A stretch of DNA of 64,000 nt from a virus (lineage: Duplodnaviria > Caudoviricetes), in the IMG/VR virus record IMGVR_UViG_3300032038_000003, positions 128,001-192,000 of that record. The stretch is one strand, 5' to 3'. The position numbers and the translations under genes were made by a program. Shown here one piece after another: positions 1,321-49,049 of this stretch (its first letter is position 1; each line of letters starts with the position of its first letter). The notes under the pieces were generated by a model. The model saw only the letters and a list, made by a program, of their open reading frames with translations, was not told the origin of the DNA and did no database searches.

Positions 1321-1929
1321 TTATTCCACTCCAAAACCTTTTATTCTAAATGCTCTTCCTGTAAAGTATAAACTGCTTTCCTTTACCCCGCCTTTAGGAT
1401 AAGGAGCATTATTAGCTGCATGTATAATCTGATCGTTGCCTTCGTAAATAACTACGTGTGAAAGACTTGAATTACATAATATATCTCCAGGTTGCTTACT
1501 ATCCCAAGGAATCTCATTAAAATATCCAGACCCTGGAATTGTTGAAACCGTAAAACGTGGAGCATTTTGAGGCATTAAACCCATCTCTTTCATGAGATAA
1601 GTAACGAAACCAGAACAATCAAAACACTTACCTTTACTGTCACTAATTTCTCCTTCAGCACCCCATACGTATGTATGACCGATAAAAGTTTTAGCAAGAG
1701 CAATAAAGGCATTTGTTTCTTTAGTTGTCATTGATGTAACGTTTGCTACAGCCATACCAAGTTCACCAACAGCATCAAGGAACTCGTCATTGAATTGTTG
1801 GAAGAGCTTTATATATTCATCTATTTTTTCATCTTCATCCACATCTAATTCATAAAATTCTTTTTTAAGATTCTTGTATGATTCAATGCGGGCTTTTAAA
1901 TCTTGAAATTGTGAAGAGTCATTTGCCAT
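1321..1929 (-). CDS. NlpC/P60 peptidoglycan endopeptidase with N-terminal coiled coil
   Basis: GHTYVWGA...FDCSGFVTY...PGDIL...HVVIYEG..IIHA; the Cys/His/His catalytic residues are intact. Confidence 0.9.
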   Translation of the reverse strand: MANDSSQFQDLKARIESYKNLKKEFYELDVDEDEKIDEYIKLFQQFNDEFLDAVGELGMAVANVTSMTTKETNAFIALAKTFIGHTYVWGAEGEISDSKGKCFDCSGFVTYLMKEMGLMPQNAPRFTVSTIPGSGYFNEIPWDSKQPGDILCNSSLSHVVIYEGNDQIIHAANNAPYPKGGVKESSLYFTGRAFRIKGFGVE

Positions 1930-2759
1930 TATGATTCATCTCCATTTAATTCTGTAGAGCCTTGCATATCTTCTTCTATCGTACTTACGTATCCATCTAC
2001 CTCTTTAATAATATCATAGGCTAAGCATATTTTCATTATTTGTGCGACTTTGAGCTGGGTTGAAATTGAATGATCAGTCTTTTCTGATTCGCTAGTAGCC
2101 TTAGTAAATTCTACGTCGTTACCATAGAATTTAATGTTACCAGTATCTTTGCAGATACGTATACCAGTATTGGCACTAGTAAAGATATCAATGTCTCCAT
2201 TATCTCTTAATTTTATTGTACTCTTATTTTTGAGATTAGTAAGTCCGACTTCGTCGTCTTCGTATTTGTCAAGAGTAGTAATCAAATCCATTGAGGTTTG
2301 ATTGACATCAATATCAGTATAACGAGCACTACTGTTTTCGTATTTGCTTAATTCTCCAGTATCATTAATCCAATCGAGATTCATTGCTATGATATGTTCT
2401 GGAGTACCAGTTTTCCATACGGTATCATCAGCAAGGTATGCTCCTTGGTCAGAGCAACTCCTTGCTGTATAATAACTTTCTGGTATACCAGTAATGACTG
2501 GATTATAAATATTACTGTTAATAAAACTAATAGAACATTTCTGTCCAGCAAAGATACTACCAGATGCCAATCCGCCAGCATGATTCGCAATCGTAACATT
2601 ACCACGATAAAGCCAACCAGAGCCGTTAGGATTAAGATACTTGATTTTACATGTTTCCGTTGTACGGTCATATTCAAGTATCGTACCAGTAGTATCTGAA
2701 AACTGTATACGATTATTATTATTAATTTGTTCTTGTAGACTGTTTTTAATTAAACTCAT
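1929..2759 (-). CDS. Putative baseplate central spike (gpV/gp5-like)
   Basis: N-terminal OB-fold-like strand pattern (GTILEYD...CKIKY...GQKCSISF...PVITG), beta-repeat C-terminal part (STIKLRDNGDIDIF..TGIRI..GNIKF), position after the hub gene. Confidence 0.55.
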   Translation of the reverse strand: MSLIKNSLQEQINNNNRIQFSDTTGTILEYDRTTETCKIKYLNPNGSGWLYRGNVTIANHAGGLASGSIFAGQKCSISFINSNIYNPVITGIPESYYTARSCSDQGAYLADDTVWKTGTPEHIIAMNLDWINDTGELSKYENSSARYTDIDVNQTSMDLITTLDKYEDDEVGLTNLKNKSTIKLRDNGDIDIFTSANTGIRICKDTGNIKFYGNDVEFTKATSESEKTDHSISTQLKVAQIMKICLAYDIIKEVDGYVSTIEEDMQGSTELNGDES

Positions 2760-5700
2760 TAGTTATCCTCTACTGAAATCTCATCGGCATCTGTTTCTTT
2801 ACCATCTTCACCAGTATTTTCTTCAGTACCAGAGTTTTCATCACCTATTAATAATATTTTTTCACCATCTTTAACACCAGCAATAAATGGTTTGCCTTCC
2901 CACCATAATGGCAATAACACACAAACGTTACGGTTTTCGAGCCAAGAAACAATCTCATCTAATACAACATCAATAATTAATGTAATGATAAGCGTAACTG
3001 CTAAAGAAAGTCCTAATGTTTCTGGAGCAGCAGCAACACCTACAGAATTTAAACCAATAGCAACTTTATCTGCTATACCAGATATCTGATTAATGGCTTC
3101 TACGGCTCTTACTATTCCAACAACAGATTTTCCAAATTTAACCGCTTGAGTAGCTGTTTTTGCATATTTCGCAACAGCTCCCAATGTTTGTAATGCGTGT
3201 GTTATAGATTCAAAGCTTCGGAATGTTCTAATTAATGCATAAACTTCCAAAGCAGATGTTGCCATAGCAGTAGTGTGTACAGCACTTTTAAATCCAAGCA
3301 CACCAGCATTAAAAGCTTGGTTTGCATTTAATTTTCTATATGATGACTGTATCAAAGTAACTGCATCTGCATAACGTTCACAATTTTCTTTTAACAATTT
3401 TCTTGATTGAGCATATTCTGTAAATTGTGAATATAATTTTAAGAAACTGGCAATCAGTGTAATATTTCCACTATCTTGTTCTGGACAAAATCCGATAATG
3501 CCAGGAATAATTGAAGTAGTAAAGCCAGTACTTGTACTAAAGGAATGAATGACTTCTCGTGTCATTGCAAGACCATTTAAATTAGTATAAAAATCATTTA
3601 CCATTAGATAATCATCTGGTTTAACTTGTGGTTGTCCTAAACATAGTATCTGTCCTTGATATTGCTGTTGCCAACCGTATAAAAGATTAGAGATACCAAG
3701 TTTTCTTGCAGCCTCTTTGCCATGTTTAGAGATACCAGTAAACTCATAAAAGGCATCCCATCCAAGATAATCTTGTACAATACAAGAATCTATAATATGA
3801 GTAGATTGTTTAGAATTGTCTATCGTATCATCGCTATGAATAATAGCAGTAGCTTTAGGTGTGCTACCACGGGTATAAATAACTTTAGCGTTTGTAAAAC
3901 TTGGTCTTGATGTTACAGACACTTGATTCTCAATAATAGCACTTAATGAATCTATATAATGCATTTGTGTATTAGCCTTACATTCTTGATAGATAGTACC
4001 ATTGATAATATCGTATCTGTATTTGGTTAAATCAAACGGTAAACCAAAATACAATCTTGAATCAAACTGATATTTCTCAGCTTTGATTAAGTATTCTGGC
4101 ATGGTTTGAGCACATAGCTGGAAGACATCCCATGGTGTCATATTATATTGGTTAAATACAATATTAGACTCACCATCACGACCAAAGATAGCCAGCAAGC
4201 TTTCGCTGGTATACATATAACCCCAATGTCTATAAGTTACACCAAACCAGCCATCACTGTTAGATGCTTTATAGACGTTCATCATTAAGTCATATTGCTC
4301 GTATATACCAGTATCAATACCGCCTTGTAAGAAATATTGATCACCACTGTTTATATATAAACCAAAATGTTCAATATTATATTTAGATCCTTCAAACCAG
4401 TTACCACCAAAGAACAAATGATTCATCCAGCTTTCACGCTTAACCATTATCTCTCCGATAATGTTAGACGCTTCTTGAGTAGCACCAAGACCAAATAATC
4501 CTAAAGCACCATTGTTTACGTCTTTAGTCTTGTCTGAAGTAATAGATTGAATCAGTTCGTGTCCATCAGAAGTAACTGTAATACTAATCTGATCTCCTAA
4601 TGTCATACCAGAGATAGTACCGTTTATAATAGGAGCAAGTGACATTGGATCAGATCCATATCCCATTCGTAAATGAACTCTTGCACCTTCTCTTACTTTG
4701 GTATGGTTAAATAAAATACTGTGCATCTGAATTAATCTGTTGGTAATTTTCAAACCACCAGCAATCATACCAAAGTTTTTATATAGCCATCTGTTGAATC
4801 CACAATAGTCTTTGTCGTCTGCAATACTATAATTGATTAAAGCAGCAGAACTTCTGTCAAGATTGTGATATGTATTAGTAACTGTTATTTGAGCAGTTTC
4901 TGTTGGCATATCGTTAGCGGCATGGTATTGAATATCTATAACAGGCTTATAAACATAGAAGTTAGTCCAAAGCTTACGACCGTCATACCATTGTGCCTGG
5001 TCATCTAAGATACAGAATAGGAAAGTAGGGAATGCCTTAACAAGTCTGCCTTTTGATGAATACTGACAGTCATCGACAAATGATGTGTTGATTCTGTTTA
5101 GATCATTATTAAGTTTAGACCATTCTTCTCCTACATTACTATCATGTGTATCAAAATGTTTAGACTTGATATAGATTGGCTTACCAAACGCTAATGTGTC
5201 AGAAATATTTACAGCAGACACTGAATATTGTCTTGCAACAGTAACGGTATTACTTGATGCCTGACTCACACCATATCCTTTAATATTATAACCAACTGTA
5301 TAAGAAGGTTCTTTATATCCATAGAAGATATGCTGATTAACAGTTCCTATTTGAACATATTTAGCATTTCTATGGTTAACTGCATAATTGGAATTGCTCA
5401 TACTTGTAAAAGCAAGCACCTTGTAATTCTTTTTCCAGCGAGCACCAGCTTGGAATACTCTTTGTACGCAAGCTTTTGCCTCATTCATATCTTTCTCTTC
5501 TTGACTGGTTTTATCAGAAGAAAAGTTATTGTTTTTAATATAAGCTGTAATTCCACCACCCTTATAATGGAACTGAATCGAATCATAAATGTATTGAGCC
5601 ATTGCCATTTTACATGCCAATGTTTCTCCTTCACATTCAGTTGCAATAGCAATAGCTAATGCATTAAATTCATCGGTAGTCATTGTCTTATATTCTGATA

Positions 5701-40154: not shown

Positions 40155-40204
40155 AATAAACCTCCTTCTGTATTATAATATACAGTAAAATATTTAAATA
40201 TGCT

Positions 40205-40244
40205 GATAAAAATCGCCTTTACTAATAATATAAAAGTAAAGGCG
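40205..40244 (-). terminator. Hairpin after the Mtd-like gene (terminator and/or DGR target hairpin)
   Basis: Perfect 10-bp inverted repeat CGCCTTTACT (40214-40223) / AGTAAAGGCG (40235-40244), followed on the minus strand by ATTTTTAT. Confidence 0.65.
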
Positions 40245-40293
40245 TTTAGTTCTATAAATATTTTAAATGATAAAAACTTAAGTTGCAAGCAAG

Positions 40294-41979
40294 TTATTTT
40301 GTCAATATTCGGCTCGACCCACGAGAACCAGAGCCGTCACTCACATAAGAACGGCGGTTAAACGAACTACGCGAACGCGACCCGCAACTAGCACCGCTAG
40401 ACCAGCTACCCCCAGCACGAAGCACATATGGGTCTCCGTATTCTTGTCCAAATGAAGCATTCTGGTCAGTTGTCGTCCATCCATTTCCTCCAACAGAAGA
40501 AGTTTCTTGTAACCATTGCCATAAATATCCACACATTTCTTCACATCCAATGGCAGATATCATACGTCTATTATCAGTATCTTTATGACCACCAACAGTA
40601 CTAGCATCAGCTGTTCCAGCAATACTTGTTTTTTCGTTAGAACCCAGTGCAGCACTTGTAAATTCGTTATCATATAATAACTTTTTACCAACCATACGCA
40701 TATCTTCGGCATGGTTATATGGTTGTCTGGACACCGTATGAGTCTGATTATATTTAGAACGTGTATTATGTCCAGTACCAGACTGTAAATAGATATCTAT
40801 TACTTTATTAATGTCTTTATCATAAACCATTCCATCTTCAAATAAAGTATCTGGATACCAGTTAAGACAGAATACAGATTCTGGTAAAATATCTCCAGCT
40901 TGAAATCCAGAAAGAGGATGGTCTACAGTTACTACATCATATTGAGATTGTGTAGTAACAGTTTTTACTTTTTTATTATAAAAGGCATAAAAATCTGGAT
41001 CTTTTTCTTGTCTATAAGATTTAATTAAATAATCTGTATTTGTGGTATATCCAGAAGAAGCTGGTGCTGGAGCTGTCATAGTAACATTAACTCCAACATC
41101 TACACATAAAGTGTGTAATCTACCTATTTTATTACCAGTAGATTGATAGTCTGTGTAAGCTGAAATATCTCCATTATTGTCTATATATAAATAATAATCA
41201 GCTCCGCCTTGTGTAATATAACTGGTTAAATCTATATGAGTATCTGTAATATAAGATTTAATAGAGCCATTAGGAAGTTTAATATTAGTACCAGCTTTGA
41301 TAATAACACCACGTTTATTTTCTGGATCAAATCTAAGCCATCTATCTATTAAAGCATTTCCAGGTACTTTTTCAGAAGTTCCACTACTACCAGAACCAGA
41401 TGTATCTATTTGAGAAATTAAATTGTCTACTTCTGTTTTTGTATAGTAACTAGTTAATGTATTTTGAAAACTTGTAGTAGATACATAATTAATTAAAGCC
41501 GCATTAAGAGCAGTTAATGTCACATAATCAGACAAATTAATTTTTGTATCACCAATAAGTTCCCATCCTTCAGTTGTACCATCTAAATTAATGTATTCGT
41601 CTTTAATATTCCTAGTTTTAGAAGTAGTACTTGGCACAAGATAAATATGGTTAGTCGAAATATCAGTAGTTGGCAATTCGTTTACTAACAAAAAGCCACC
41701 AGATGTTTGCTGATTAATTAAAGTATTAACCTCGGTTTTTGAATATGTTTCTGTTTTTAAATAATAATTTATTAAATTATTAACAGTATTAGTAATAAAA
41801 CCAGAATCGTTATTTAAATCACTGGTTTTTGTAGGCTGTGACATATTATCGATTTTAGTAAGTAAAGTATTAATTTCAGACTGAGTATACTGAATTGTCT
41901 GCATATCTTGTTTAACTTTGTCGAGCATTGCTTCGATTTCAGTAGAGGTATGTTTAGATATAAATTTTTCTTCAGCCAT
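40294..41979 (-). CDS. Mtd-like receptor-binding protein with C-terminal C-type-lectin (FGE-like) fold; DGR target
   Basis: HPLSG..AGDILPESV, IDIYLQSG, GCEEMCGYLWQW, RAGGSWSSGASCGSRSR...GSRG: the motif series of major-tropism-determinant-like proteins. Confidence 0.85.
   Translation of the reverse strand: MAEEKFISKHTSTEIEAMLDKVKQDMQTIQYTQSEINTLLTKIDNMSQPTKTSDLNNDSGFITNTVNNLINYYLKTETYSKTEVNTLINQQTSGGFLLVNELPTTDISTNHIYLVPSTTSKTRNIKDEYINLDGTTEGWELIGDTKINLSDYVTLTALNAALINYVSTTSFQNTLTSYYTKTEVDNLISQIDTSGSGSSGTSEKVPGNALIDRWLRFDPENKRGVIIKAGTNIKLPNGSIKSYITDTHIDLTSYITQGGADYYLYIDNNGDISAYTDYQSTGNKIGRLHTLCVDVGVNVTMTAPAPASSGYTTNTDYLIKSYRQEKDPDFYAFYNKKVKTVTTQSQYDVVTVDHPLSGFQAGDILPESVFCLNWYPDTLFEDGMVYDKDINKVIDIYLQSGTGHNTRSKYNQTHTVSRQPYNHAEDMRMVGKKLLYDNEFTSAALGSNEKTSIAGTADASTVGGHKDTDNRRMISAIGCEEMCGYLWQWLQETSSVGGNGWTTTDQNASFGQEYGDPYVLRAGGSWSSGASCGSRSRSSFNRRSYVSDGSGSRGSSRILTK
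40312..40425 (-). other. DGR variable region (VR)
   Basis: 38 consecutive codons with no third-position A, only 10 A in 114 nt, about 60% GC in an AT-rich genome; every A-containing codon ends in C/T. Confidence 0.8.
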
Positions 41980-41990
41980 TTTGTTTTCTC

Positions 41991-42272
41991 CTATTTACTA
42001 TAAAATATTTTACCGTCTGCGGTTACTATTAATTTATTATCACTCGTTCTAAAATTAGTATTAGGCTCTATATCATAATTATCAAGCATTTCTTGTATCA
42101 TAGCTTGAATTTCTGCTTTTGTATAGGTCTGTACTTCTGGTATATTATCAATCTGTGTATTTACATATTGTTTTAACGAATCAGTAGCGTCTGATAATAA
42201 AGACTGAAAATATTTTTTAAGTTCTTTATTATTTTCTTCCATGACTCGCTTTATATATTCTTTAGTATTCAT
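41991..42272 (-). CDS. Small fibre adaptor-like protein
   Basis: TGATG overlap with the upstream gene; motifs YTKAEIQAMI and FRTSDNKLIVTADGKIF shared with neighbours. Confidence 0.55.
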   Translation of the reverse strand: MNTKEYIKRVMEENNKELKKYFQSLLSDATDSLKQYVNTQIDNIPEVQTYTKAEIQAMIQEMLDNYDIEPNTNFRTSDNKLIVTADGKIFYSK

Positions 42273-43648
42273 CACGAGTCACCTTCTTTCGCTACGAATA
42301 CTTTATTGTCTTGAGTATTGTCAGCCATAATAAAATTCGTTTTATATTCTGAAGGCCATAAATAGTTAATCAGTTTAGTAACATCTGATTCAGTAAAAGC
42401 TTCTATTAGTTCGTTATTATTATATAGTAATTTTCCGTCATTGTCAGTAGAAAACTTATCTATAACTGATTGATTAGTATGTTTATGACTGTTATCAATA
42501 ACAGTTTGAGTCAAATTATCAAGAGCTAATTTATTAGTATGTTTATGACTATCATCTATTATTTGTTGCGTAACATTATCTAATACAGACTTATTAGTAT
42601 GAGTATGAGAATTATCTATTACTGATTGTGTAAGATTATCTAATACTGATTTATTGCTATGAGTATGAAGATTAGATATATTTGTATTAATATTATCTAT
42701 ATCTTGACCTAACTGGTCCAGCTCATCATTAACATTTTGTTCTAATTGGTCAATTTCGTCATTAATATCTTGAACGTCTTGATCATGTTTATTTTCAAGT
42801 GCATCTATATTATCTTGTAACTCTTTAGCTTTGTCAGTAATAGTTTTATTGATATCAGTATCTAATTGTGTAACAGTATCAGATAAATCAGAAATGTCTT
42901 TTTGTAAATCTTGGACATCTTGATTATGTTTCGCTTCTAAATCAGAAATAGACTTGTTAATAGCTGTTTCTTTTGTAGTAATAGTATTATTGATGGTATC
43001 TACTGCTGATTGTAACATGGTTTTAGTTACATAATCAGATAAGTCAATCCTGGTATTTCCTATTTTTTCCCATTGACCATCAAGGTACATATATTCTTCA
43101 TATAAGTCATCCTGTTCTGGATCTATCTGAAGAAAATATATGGTCATTGTTTTAATATCTTCTGTAGGTAATTCAGTACATTTTATAATCTCAAAACTTG
43201 TTAACTGATCAAATAAAGATTTTGCATATGCTTTTGCATTACCAAGAGTAGCGTTCCATAAATCTTTATCTGCTTGAGTAACGTGAATTGTAAGATTGTC
43301 TGCATGACTTTTAACAGTATCGTCTGTATATTGAGCGGTACTGTTCCATTTATCACGTTCAGCTGCTGTAATATGTATATCAGTATTATTTTTGTGTAAG
43401 TCATAATCATCAGCAAGATTATTAATACGATTAGTAAATTTGGTATCCAATAAAGATATCTGATATGTCATATCAGAATTAAGCTGATCAATATCGTCAT
43501 CAAGAGATTGCAATTTATTATCTATTGTATTATGTAAATCTTTTTGATTTGTAGCAAATTGATTTACGTATGCAATTAACAAATTAATCTCTTGATTAAT
43601 TTTTGCATTATTTAGTTGCAACGCTAATTTTAAATTGTTTAATGTCAT
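42272..43648 (-). CDS. Coiled-coil tail fibre shaft protein with HxHxN repeats
   Basis: Heptad coiled coils; HITAAERDKWN/HVTQADKDLWN; ELPTEDIKTMTIYF...WEKIGNTRIDLSDYVT module; four 20-aa repeats. Confidence 0.7.
   Translation of the reverse strand: MTLNNLKLALQLNNAKINQEINLLIAYVNQFATNQKDLHNTIDNKLQSLDDDIDQLNSDMTYQISLLDTKFTNRINNLADDYDLHKNNTDIHITAAERDKWNSTAQYTDDTVKSHADNLTIHVTQADKDLWNATLGNAKAYAKSLFDQLTSFEIIKCTELPTEDIKTMTIYFLQIDPEQDDLYEEYMYLDGQWEKIGNTRIDLSDYVTKTMLQSAVDTINNTITTKETAINKSISDLEAKHNQDVQDLQKDISDLSDTVTQLDTDINKTITDKAKELQDNIDALENKHDQDVQDINDEIDQLEQNVNDELDQLGQDIDNINTNISNLHTHSNKSVLDNLTQSVIDNSHTHTNKSVLDNVTQQIIDDSHKHTNKLALDNLTQTVIDNSHKHTNQSVIDKFSTDNDGKLLYNNNELIEAFTESDVTKLINYLWPSEYKTNFIMADNTQDNKVFVAKEGDS
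42460..42670 (-). repeat. Coding tandem repeat, 60-bp period, about 3.5-4 copies
   Basis: HTHSNKSVLDNLTQSVIDNS / HTHTNKSVLDNVTQQIIDDS / HKHTNKLALDNLTQTVIDNS / HKHTNQSVID. Confidence 0.9.
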
Positions 43649-47867: not shown

Positions 47868-49049
47868 TTATTCACCTTCTATAAACATTAATAGTTTGGT
47901 CAGTTCTCCTACGGCTTGTTGTGTGCTATCTTTATAAATATCAGAATTTAATCTTTTATCGTTATATAAAAAGTAATGTGGAAAATATGATGATGGTATC
48001 ATATCTACAGATATTGTTCCATTACCACCATATCGTCCTCCTTGTCCTCCAATTGCATCGATAGAACCACGGATAAATTGTTTACTGTAAAAAATATTAA
48101 CTGATCCACCGCCAGAACTACCAGCACCACCATGCCAAGAAGCAACTCCATTTGAACTGATAGAACCGTTATTCTGCAAATTAAGAGCAAATATTATCAA
48201 TAATCCACCAGTTCCACTTGCTTGGTTATGGTCTGTACTTGCATTTAATTCTCTTGTAAAACGTCCATCAGTCCATCTTGTGTGTCTACCAGATGGGTTA
48301 CCAACACCACCAGGACAGCCATAATCAGAATAGGCATAATCCCAGTTTTGTGAGCCATGACCACCATGACCACCGTCATCAGTTCCGTTTGGGTCTAATA
48401 TAGGCCCTCCATATTCAGAACTATGTCTATTCCACTGACCAGCTCCAGTACCTCCAGAAAATGATGTACCATTACCACCACGACCAGTCCAAAACCAAAT
48501 ACTGCCCCAAGTCCAAGCTCCACCAGCTATTCCACCGCCACCGCCGCCAGTTTGTCTTCCTGTACCGTTATAACCATTACCACCCCATACCCAAGTACTA
48601 GGGTGTCCTGACCATCCGCTAACAGAAGGAGCACCAGCAGCTCCTACTGCTGGCACATATTCGTTATTATATAGCCATATATTTTGTCCAGTTGCATGTG
48701 CTCCACGAGCAGTCATAGATATAGTGCCATTATTTACAAGATCTTGAACGTCATATATAATTATTCCTTTGCATCTATGCGGAGGAGTAAATATTACATC
48801 ATCTTCTATGGTTAAAGAACATGCCAAAACAATTTGTGTTGCACAATCATCCGTAGTACAAAGAGAAAAAATATTTTTCACGTCGTTACTATTATAAACC
48901 ACAGTTTTAGGTGGTAATTTGTATAAATGCACATTTAAATTTATACCATTGATATTCAAAGTAATGGCTAAAGACGCATTGTTTTTTAGTTTAGTATAAA
49001 AATATTTACAAGCTTTTATTAAATCAGTAAAATGATCTTGATATTGCAT
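47868..49049 (-). CDS. Glycine/tryptophan-rich putative adhesin (paralog A)
   Basis: Poly-Gly segments separated by Trp-rich loops (GGAWTWGSIWFWTGRGGNG). Confidence 0.6.
   Translation of the reverse strand: MQYQDHFTDLIKACKYFYTKLKNNASLAITLNINGINLNVHLYKLPPKTVVYNSNDVKNIFSLCTTDDCATQIVLACSLTIEDDVIFTPPHRCKGIIIYDVQDLVNNGTISMTARGAHATGQNIWLYNNEYVPAVGAAGAPSVSGWSGHPSTWVWGGNGYNGTGRQTGGGGGGIAGGAWTWGSIWFWTGRGGNGTSFSGGTGAGQWNRHSSEYGGPILDPNGTDDGGHGGHGSQNWDYAYSDYGCPGGVGNPSGRHTRWTDGRFTRELNASTDHNQASGTGGLLIIFALNLQNNGSISSNGVASWHGGAGSSGGGSVNIFYSKQFIRGSIDAIGGQGGRYGGNGTISVDMIPSSYFPHYFLYNDKRLNSDIYKDSTQQAVGELTKLLMFIEGE

Follow-up and report, generated by a model that had tools for sequence, protein, structure and literature searches.

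Does an adenine-poor, GC-rich tract at the 3′ end of a phage tail gene mark a DGR target when no retroelement accompanies it, and is such a tract still being rewritten? The window analyzed here is a stretch of 64,000 nt of phage DNA contained in the 210,314-bp IMG/VR record IMGVR_UViG_3300032038_000003 (G000). An initial annotation, made from the letters alone, had described an orphan DGR variable region (VR) in an Mtd-like receptor-binding gene and had quoted its codons. These are the exact minus-strand reading of positions 40425->40312, which comprises 38 sense codons, continues into the tail R-I-L-T-K-stop, and is in frame with the 561-aa open reading frame (ORF; Table 1). Codon counts against the other 518 codons of the gene confirmed every compositional feature that had been listed: no VR codon ends in A (0/38 compared with 177/518 in the rest of the gene; Fisher p = 3e-7), all six Arg codons are CGY (6/6, with AGR making up 7/11 elsewhere in the gene), and 10/10 VR adenines occupy codon position 1 or 2 of NNY codons (AGC, AGT, AAC, TAT, GAC). 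A content is 8.8% in the VR and 36.6% in the other 518 codons, and the corresponding GC contents are 59.6% and 31.3%. Across the 210,314-bp record, no other 114-nt segment is as GC rich: the tract has 69 G+C, ~5 sd above the average for the record (39; sd 6). An A-depleted, GC-rich NNY tract can flag a past DGR target even without a retroelement, which is useful for annotation. Other GC-rich islands of the genome were considered as additional VRs and rejected, as they are Gly/Ala-rich coding segments; the second strongest, at window positions 48420-48660 (minus strand), encodes a glycine-rich part (GGNGYNGTG...GGGGGG...) of a large protein of the tail cluster and is no VR.

Table 1. Features of the target locus and the DNA downstream of it (window positions)
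Feature	Position	Strand	Basis
Tail/receptor-binding (predicted) protein gene, 561 aa	40294..41979	-	ORF, PHROG and fold match
DGR variable region (VR) proper, ~112 nt	40314..40425	-	Homology to sister TRs, hypervariability, composition outlier
IMH-like 3′ VR boundary, GCCGAATATTGACAAAA	40297..40313	-	VR and TR diverge here in all relatives
Scar: last five codons and stop of deleted RT gene (AACTTGCTTGCAACTTAA = N L L A T *)	40278..40295	-	Collinearity with relatives' RT 3′ ends
Intergenic region: hairpin, TATAAT, RBS of next gene	40155..40277	-	Alignment to L019 3553-3829 at 74%
Next gene, 401 aa	38949..40154	-	Synteny; directly after RT gene in DGR-positive L024, L026, and L019

The 561-aa product matches phrog_11262, annotated as "tail protein" (E 3.4e-30), and a tail sheath gene identified by PHROG lies 3.4 kb away. 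Pfam yields only a sub-threshold match to PF03781 (FGE-sulfatase) at residues 472-543. Residues 206-561 constitute an Mtd-like body of 356 residues. An AlphaFold2 model of this portion, which drew on 61 homologs, has a pLDDT of 90.9 and a pTM of 0.91, and its top Foldseek matches are the five BPP-1 Mtd structures 1YU0-1YU4 (E 3e-18, TM 0.71/0.67), aligned over ~385 columns at 23% sequence identity. The next matches are TaqVP (5VF4) and then formylglycine-generating enzymes (FGE). Model and Foldseek matches together display the Mtd architecture of β-prism, β-sandwich, and C-type-lectin (CLec) domain, with the VR on the C-terminal CLec surface, and the tract is accordingly modeled as encoding the predicted ligand-binding face of a C-type-lectin tip in an Mtd-like tail (receptor-binding) protein. 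The tail context, with a PHROG tail protein and a nearby tail sheath, is consistent with a fiber-tip trimer and with binding of a host receptor. Residues 1 to ~200 form a separate, modular fiber N terminus, which is common to the relatives L009-L016 (L0xx labels denote contigs of relatives) and to the neighboring 458-aa gene. Residues 80-162 of the target recur at 41% identity in this 458-aa fiber gene (42272..43648; the recurrence is at window 43001-43237, minus strand), which fits a modular fiber cluster. GenBank phages returned zero DNA matches, and their sole protein match is distant. The phage itself is jumbo-sized (~210 kb), contractile-tailed, and myovirus-like.

A search of 5.8 billion proteins detected >1,500 relatives. 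Among them, 24 form a same-species cluster, and outside the VR their sequences share 93-98% identity with the window's protein. Within the VR, each same-species strain differs at the same ~14 codons, and nucleotide identity among strains falls from 93-100% to 73-81% over the last 150 nt of the gene. Intact cassettes are present among relatives of the window phage. In the IMG/VR contigs L001, L002, L003, and L007, an Asn-rich second copy of the tract, the template repeat (TR), lies tens to hundreds of bases past the stop codon and is followed by an RVT_1 reverse transcriptase (RT). Target, TR, and RT also stand in a row in L019 (protein 96% identical; TR at 2325-2436, RVT_1 RT at 2554-3570) and in L024, L025, and L026 (contigs of 200.9-212.7 kb), and the relatives' RTs bear the DGR motif IGxxxSQ together with YCDD. 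In L001, 22/22 VR/TR mismatches before the boundary fall at TR adenines, by which we mean the A positions of the template repeat, and comparison of each contig's own VR with its own TR gave 0 non-A mismatches for L017 and L001 (counted) and for L024 (read from the codon alignment). The window VR matches the VR and TR of L019, L024, L017, and L001 column for column, with 23-24 mismatches at TR adenines and 9-10 non-A mismatches to the sampled TRs. In a set of 11 VRs, each of the four bases occurs at AAY-derived positions, with the rest of the gene 93-100% identical. The reading of the tract as a DGR variable region bearing the footprint of adenine-specific retrohoming from AAY codons is thereby upheld, through the hypervariability between strains and through homology to sister VR/TR pairs that mismatch only at TR adenines; the Mtd-like assignment of its gene holds by fold.

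VR/TR identity ends at a common boundary in L001, L019, L024, and L017, where the VR reads ...TCGAGCCG or ...TCAGGCCG and the TR reads ...TCGATACG or ...TCAATATG. The window sequence at this boundary is identical to that of L001, so that an L001-type version of an IMH-type boundary is kept at the 3′ end of the VR. By analogy to the BPP-1 IMH (PMC3240598, PMC12875486), the boundary would act as an IMH. Two DGR-positive contigs, L024 and L026, have 0 differences in 700 nt of flank and eight differences in the VR, all at TR adenines, a pattern that on sequence grounds reads as the signature of current DGR activity. The differences between these two VRs (4555-4686) are found only in the 5′ third, the 3′ two-thirds being identical, variable codons included, and this suggests partial-tract rewriting or intra-VR recombination.

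The initial annotation had seen no RT, Avd, or TR in the 64 kb and had proposed that the target would be served from a distant locus or in trans. The absence holds, and it extends to the entire genome, which is complete because the ends of the contig overlap: the first 208 nt (1-208) overlap the last ~166 nt (210149-210314), and the sole difference is one 42-nt tandem-repeat unit. This unit lies in a coding repeat (EEPVV...), and the difference is probably the reason for the IMG/VR label "linear." CheckV completeness is 100, and the genome is ~2.4 kb shorter than DGR-positive sister contigs (212.66-212.73 kb), 1.27 kb of which is accounted for by a deletion at the target locus. Within G000 we detected no RT using Pfam RVT_1, and tblastn with the cognate RTs gave a best E of 1.7; neither Pfam PF05635 nor tblastn with the 102-aa accessory ORF of L002 detected an Avd; and blastn-short and an A-tolerant sliding scan for a TR returned only the VR, the best non-self match having 26 non-A mismatches. 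The window VR is thus an orphan without a cognate TR in its own genome, and all that is left there of a DGR-clade RT is the last 18 nt of its ORF. A near copy next to an RT, which the initial annotation had suggested seeking beyond the window, does not occur in G000; sister strains have a homologous TR and RT cassette. The same annotation had held that the VR would be a fossil if there were no TR or RT anywhere and no variation between strains; the former is the case, yet variation between strains is strong.

The 18-nt RT remnant overlaps the stop codon of the target gene by two bases. RT genes end in NLLAT* in L001, as does the window scar, and in NLLAS* in L019 and L024. Past the scar, the window is collinear with the post-RT DNA of DGR-positive strains, and this collinearity extends into the first part of the next gene. 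Relative to L024, the window lacks ~1,267 bp that make up the TR, the spacer, and the RT gene apart from 18 nt, and the deletion junction sits in the short repeat ATAAC(T). The RT 3′ remnant and the collinear post-RT DNA together show that a TR-RT cassette once adjoined the target and was then lost in cis. The identical junction is found in four more metagenome contigs from four different runs (L021, L027, L028, and L029), and the ~300 nt past the junction are 96-100% identical among the five junction contigs. The exact junction pattern gave 0 matches in IMG/VR and JGI metagenome contigs. The intergenic region downstream of the scar is 96-100% identical to that of the DGR-minus contigs and contains a GC-stem hairpin (AAACGCCTTTAC...GTAAAGGCG) followed by Ts; the hairpin may be a terminator and the TATAAT a promoter. 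No Pfam or PHROG match was obtained for the product of the 401-aa gene that follows.

These observations bear on two explanations in which the cassette was never lost. According to one, the phage does have a TR and an RT, but far from the target, or else in a portion of the genome that the contig lacks. IMG/VR does label the record "linear," some DGRs are known to have targets that are not adjacent (PMC5758913), and the homologous cassette of L001 occupies another locus. However, a closed genome without RT, Avd, or TR excludes a distant locus within G000, and the ~1.27-kb loss in cis is at odds with service from such a locus; the overlap of the contig ends to within one 42-nt unit, the CheckV value, and a length within 2.4 kb of the sister genomes leave little room for missing DNA, and the L001-type cassette site is empty in G000 (genome 102,897-102,940). 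This explanation is already contradicted, and we regard it as very improbable. According to the other, the tract is unrelated to DGRs, being a GC-rich tail produced by chance or selection, or else an assembler skipped the TR-RT. Low-complexity Gly/Ala-rich GC islands do occur elsewhere in the genome, and VR and TR are repeats that are able to confuse assemblers. A chance or selected Ser/Gly/Arg-rich GC tail was nevertheless rejected on the column-by-column homology to relatives' VR/TR pairs with A-only mismatches, and misassembly was rejected on the position of the junction, which falls not between repeats but where the stop codon meets the RT 3′ end, and on its recurrence in five assemblies made with different pipelines (the window from JGI/ENA, the other four from Logan). 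We give this explanation almost no credence. The L001 cassette (380-aa target, TR, and RT) is located at 1358-3782 of its contig, between homologs of two neighboring genes that are ~45 bp apart in G000, at a site 65 kb from the window's target gene. This difference in locus indicates that the cassette, or its Mtd-like module, has moved between loci in this phage group.

The window is not the only member of the clade with a damaged cassette. In L017 (11684-12150) the TR is intact and the VR has 0 non-A mismatches, and the RT is reduced to an inverted 37-aa fragment. L020 (3944-4410) has an intact TR and the gene layout of L017, with no RT among its called genes. L018 (11684-12049) has lost both TR and RT; its junction is a different one, and a 60-aa ORF now occupies the site. 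These three contigs are further independent decay states, and DGR decay appears to recur in this phage clade. Alleles with the DGR intact, alleles with a TR but a destroyed RT, and alleles with the whole cassette deleted co-circulate in a single species. Together with the exact scar and a closed genome without RT, these same-species strains at three stages provide a clean natural example of DGR loss.

We consider that the window VR is probably a locked-in relic of past mutagenic homing in a phage whose TR-RT was deleted. The ancestral order, kept in same-species strains, was target gene, 112-nt template repeat, and DGR-type RT, with TR RNA copied with adenine-specific errors and the resulting cDNA overwriting the VR up to the IMH. 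A ~1.27-kb deletion, bounded by a pair of short ATAAC(T) repeats, then took the TR and the RT gene except for its last 18 nt. With TR and RT deleted, the phage can no longer diversify its tip by itself, and its VR, the product of past mutagenic homing, is most likely static in its lineage, still intact and presumably functional as a receptor binder of fixed specificity. We infer that this VR is frozen rather than serviced in trans. As the 3′ end of the VR, the IMH, and the RT scar are all L001-like and not L019/L024-like, the window VR may well be the allele that the gene bore at the moment of cassette loss, the cassette having been of an unsampled type. Between the DGR-minus contigs L021 and L027, which come from different runs, there are two differences in the flanks and 0 in the VR, the opposite of the DGR-positive pair L024/L026, each side of this frozen-versus-active contrast being one contig pair. 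In addition, DGR-minus VRs have scaffold (non-A) changes relative to the species TR that are absent from DGR-positive VRs and that homing from a TR would have erased, among them a Cys->Trp change in the conserved ASCGSR block of L029 and a Gly->Asp change at the conserved NG/GG position of L021 and L027. These changes possibly represent early decay of unserviced VRs. If the VR is indeed frozen, the consequence for the phage is a (predicted) receptor-binding tip locked to one specificity.

The principal evidence against a frozen VR is that the five contigs with the identical junction bear four very different VRs, L021 and L027 sharing one allele and the window, L028, and L029 each having a distinct one. 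If there was a single deletion, the VRs must have changed afterwards at least three times. Point mutation as the source of the four alleles is excluded, the flanks differing by only 1-3%. What could have changed them is either recombination among frozen VRs or rewriting in trans during co-infection, in which the TR-RNA/RT complex of DGR-positive relatives would recognize the IMH and VR flanks retained by RT-less strains. Rewriting of this kind would account for one scar with four VRs that differ mainly at TR-adenine positions; the VRs of L021/L027 and L029 depart from the TR of same-species DGR-positive strains at just 1-2 non-A positions, the IMH-like boundary of the window is intact, the bodies of the target genes are >96% identical between DGR-positive and DGR-minus strains, and BPP-1 DGR components act in trans from plasmids (PMC5758913, PMC12875486). 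Recombination, for its part, needs crossovers within the 17-38 nt from the last variable codon to the junction. Yet the DGR-minus strains differ in the IMH itself (TCGAGCCGA, TCAGGCCGC, TCAAGCTGC), and since homing leaves the IMH unrewritten, recombination with other VR alleles is the likely source of this difference. The flanking haplotypes of junction and sister strains are mosaic, which is compatible with either process; the mosaic blocks are a few hundred bases in size, so recombination is frequent. L021 and L027 share an identical VR despite coming from different runs, and each sampled TR differs from the window VR by 9-10 non-A mismatches. When IMG/VR, GTDB species genomes, and JGI metagenome contigs were searched for a window-type TR with an exact, A-tolerant pattern, there were 0 matches; a diverged TR would escape this search. 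The L001 TR was rejected as the donor of the window VR, with 10-11 non-A mismatches; in IMG/VR the only true match to an L001-type TR end is L001 itself, the other five being chance matches. We therefore favor recombination of frozen VRs over rewriting by co-infecting DGR-positive kin as the source of VR turnover after the loss, and hold rewriting in trans to be a tentative possibility. The reading that the RT-less strains are DGR free-riders that shed the cassette, kept a competent VR and IMH, and have the tip re-diversified upon co-infection with kin is in our view doubtful; if true, it would explain why a single deletion haplotype bears four VR alleles. The identical scar, found with several VR alleles in public metagenomes, offers a phage-population system for directly testing whether a DGR can act upon targets in genomes that co-infect the same cell.

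Taken with its relatives, the tract is a former DGR target and not a complete DGR: its own genome holds neither the cognate TR nor an RT, but hypervariability, boundary, and fold all identify it by comparison. Among known systems, BPP-1 Mtd and its DGR (avd-TR-brt) come closest; action of this DGR in trans has been shown experimentally (PMC5758913; PMC12875486). The likeness extends over the whole length of the fold and to the location of the VR at the extreme C terminus on a C-type-lectin fold, the AAY template codons in the relatives' TRs, the end of the VR at an IMH-like boundary, and, in sister strains, the order target, TR, and RT. The two differ in that sequence identity to BPP-1 Mtd is only 23%, that BPP-1 is a 42-kb podovirus and the phage here a ~210-kb contractile-tailed one, that same-species cassettes have no recognizable Avd gene (L002, L003, and L007 having an unrelated 102-aa ORF), and that TR and RT are deleted in G000. 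Remote DGR targets, such as those of Treponema denticola, Legionella, and others (PMC5758913), likewise have a VR without adjacent TR and RT and share the concept of machinery working in trans; however, their cognate TR and RT lie elsewhere in the same genome, whereas closed G000 has none and bears a scar that marks a formerly adjacent cassette. As in DGR-encoding gut phages (hankyphage, PMC12135933; crAss-like phages, PMC7290462), the target is a tail fiber whose VRs vary from strain to strain while the TR stays identical. Every hankyphage prophage examined had a predicted intact DGR (PMC12135933), in contrast to the intact, TR-only, and fully deleted alleles that co-circulate within one species here. 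A CLec/FGE fold at the VR is also shared with TaqVP, TvpA, and FGE-sulfatase-type variable proteins (Foldseek 5VF4 and FGE; weak PF03781), but these are cellular proteins, the protein here is a phage tail protein, and the similarity is far weaker than that to Mtd.

Two further features of the relatives' cassettes were observed. In the more distantly related cassettes of L002 (3785-4093), L003 (11098-11391), and L007 (763-1059), a conserved ORF of ~100 aa without a Pfam match lies between target and TR; it is absent from the same-species cassettes and is possibly a candidate non-Avd accessory factor. When the L024 TR was aligned with 11 VRs (window 40314-40425 and L017-L029), the TR adenines outside AAY codons (GCA, GGA, AGG twice, and TCA twice) corresponded to G in 10-11/11 VRs. 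These adenines are never A in the 11 VRs, even at synonymous third positions, whereas AAY adenines often stay A. A context-dependent A->G outcome, selection on the VR nucleic acid, or patchy rewriting could each produce G at these sites.
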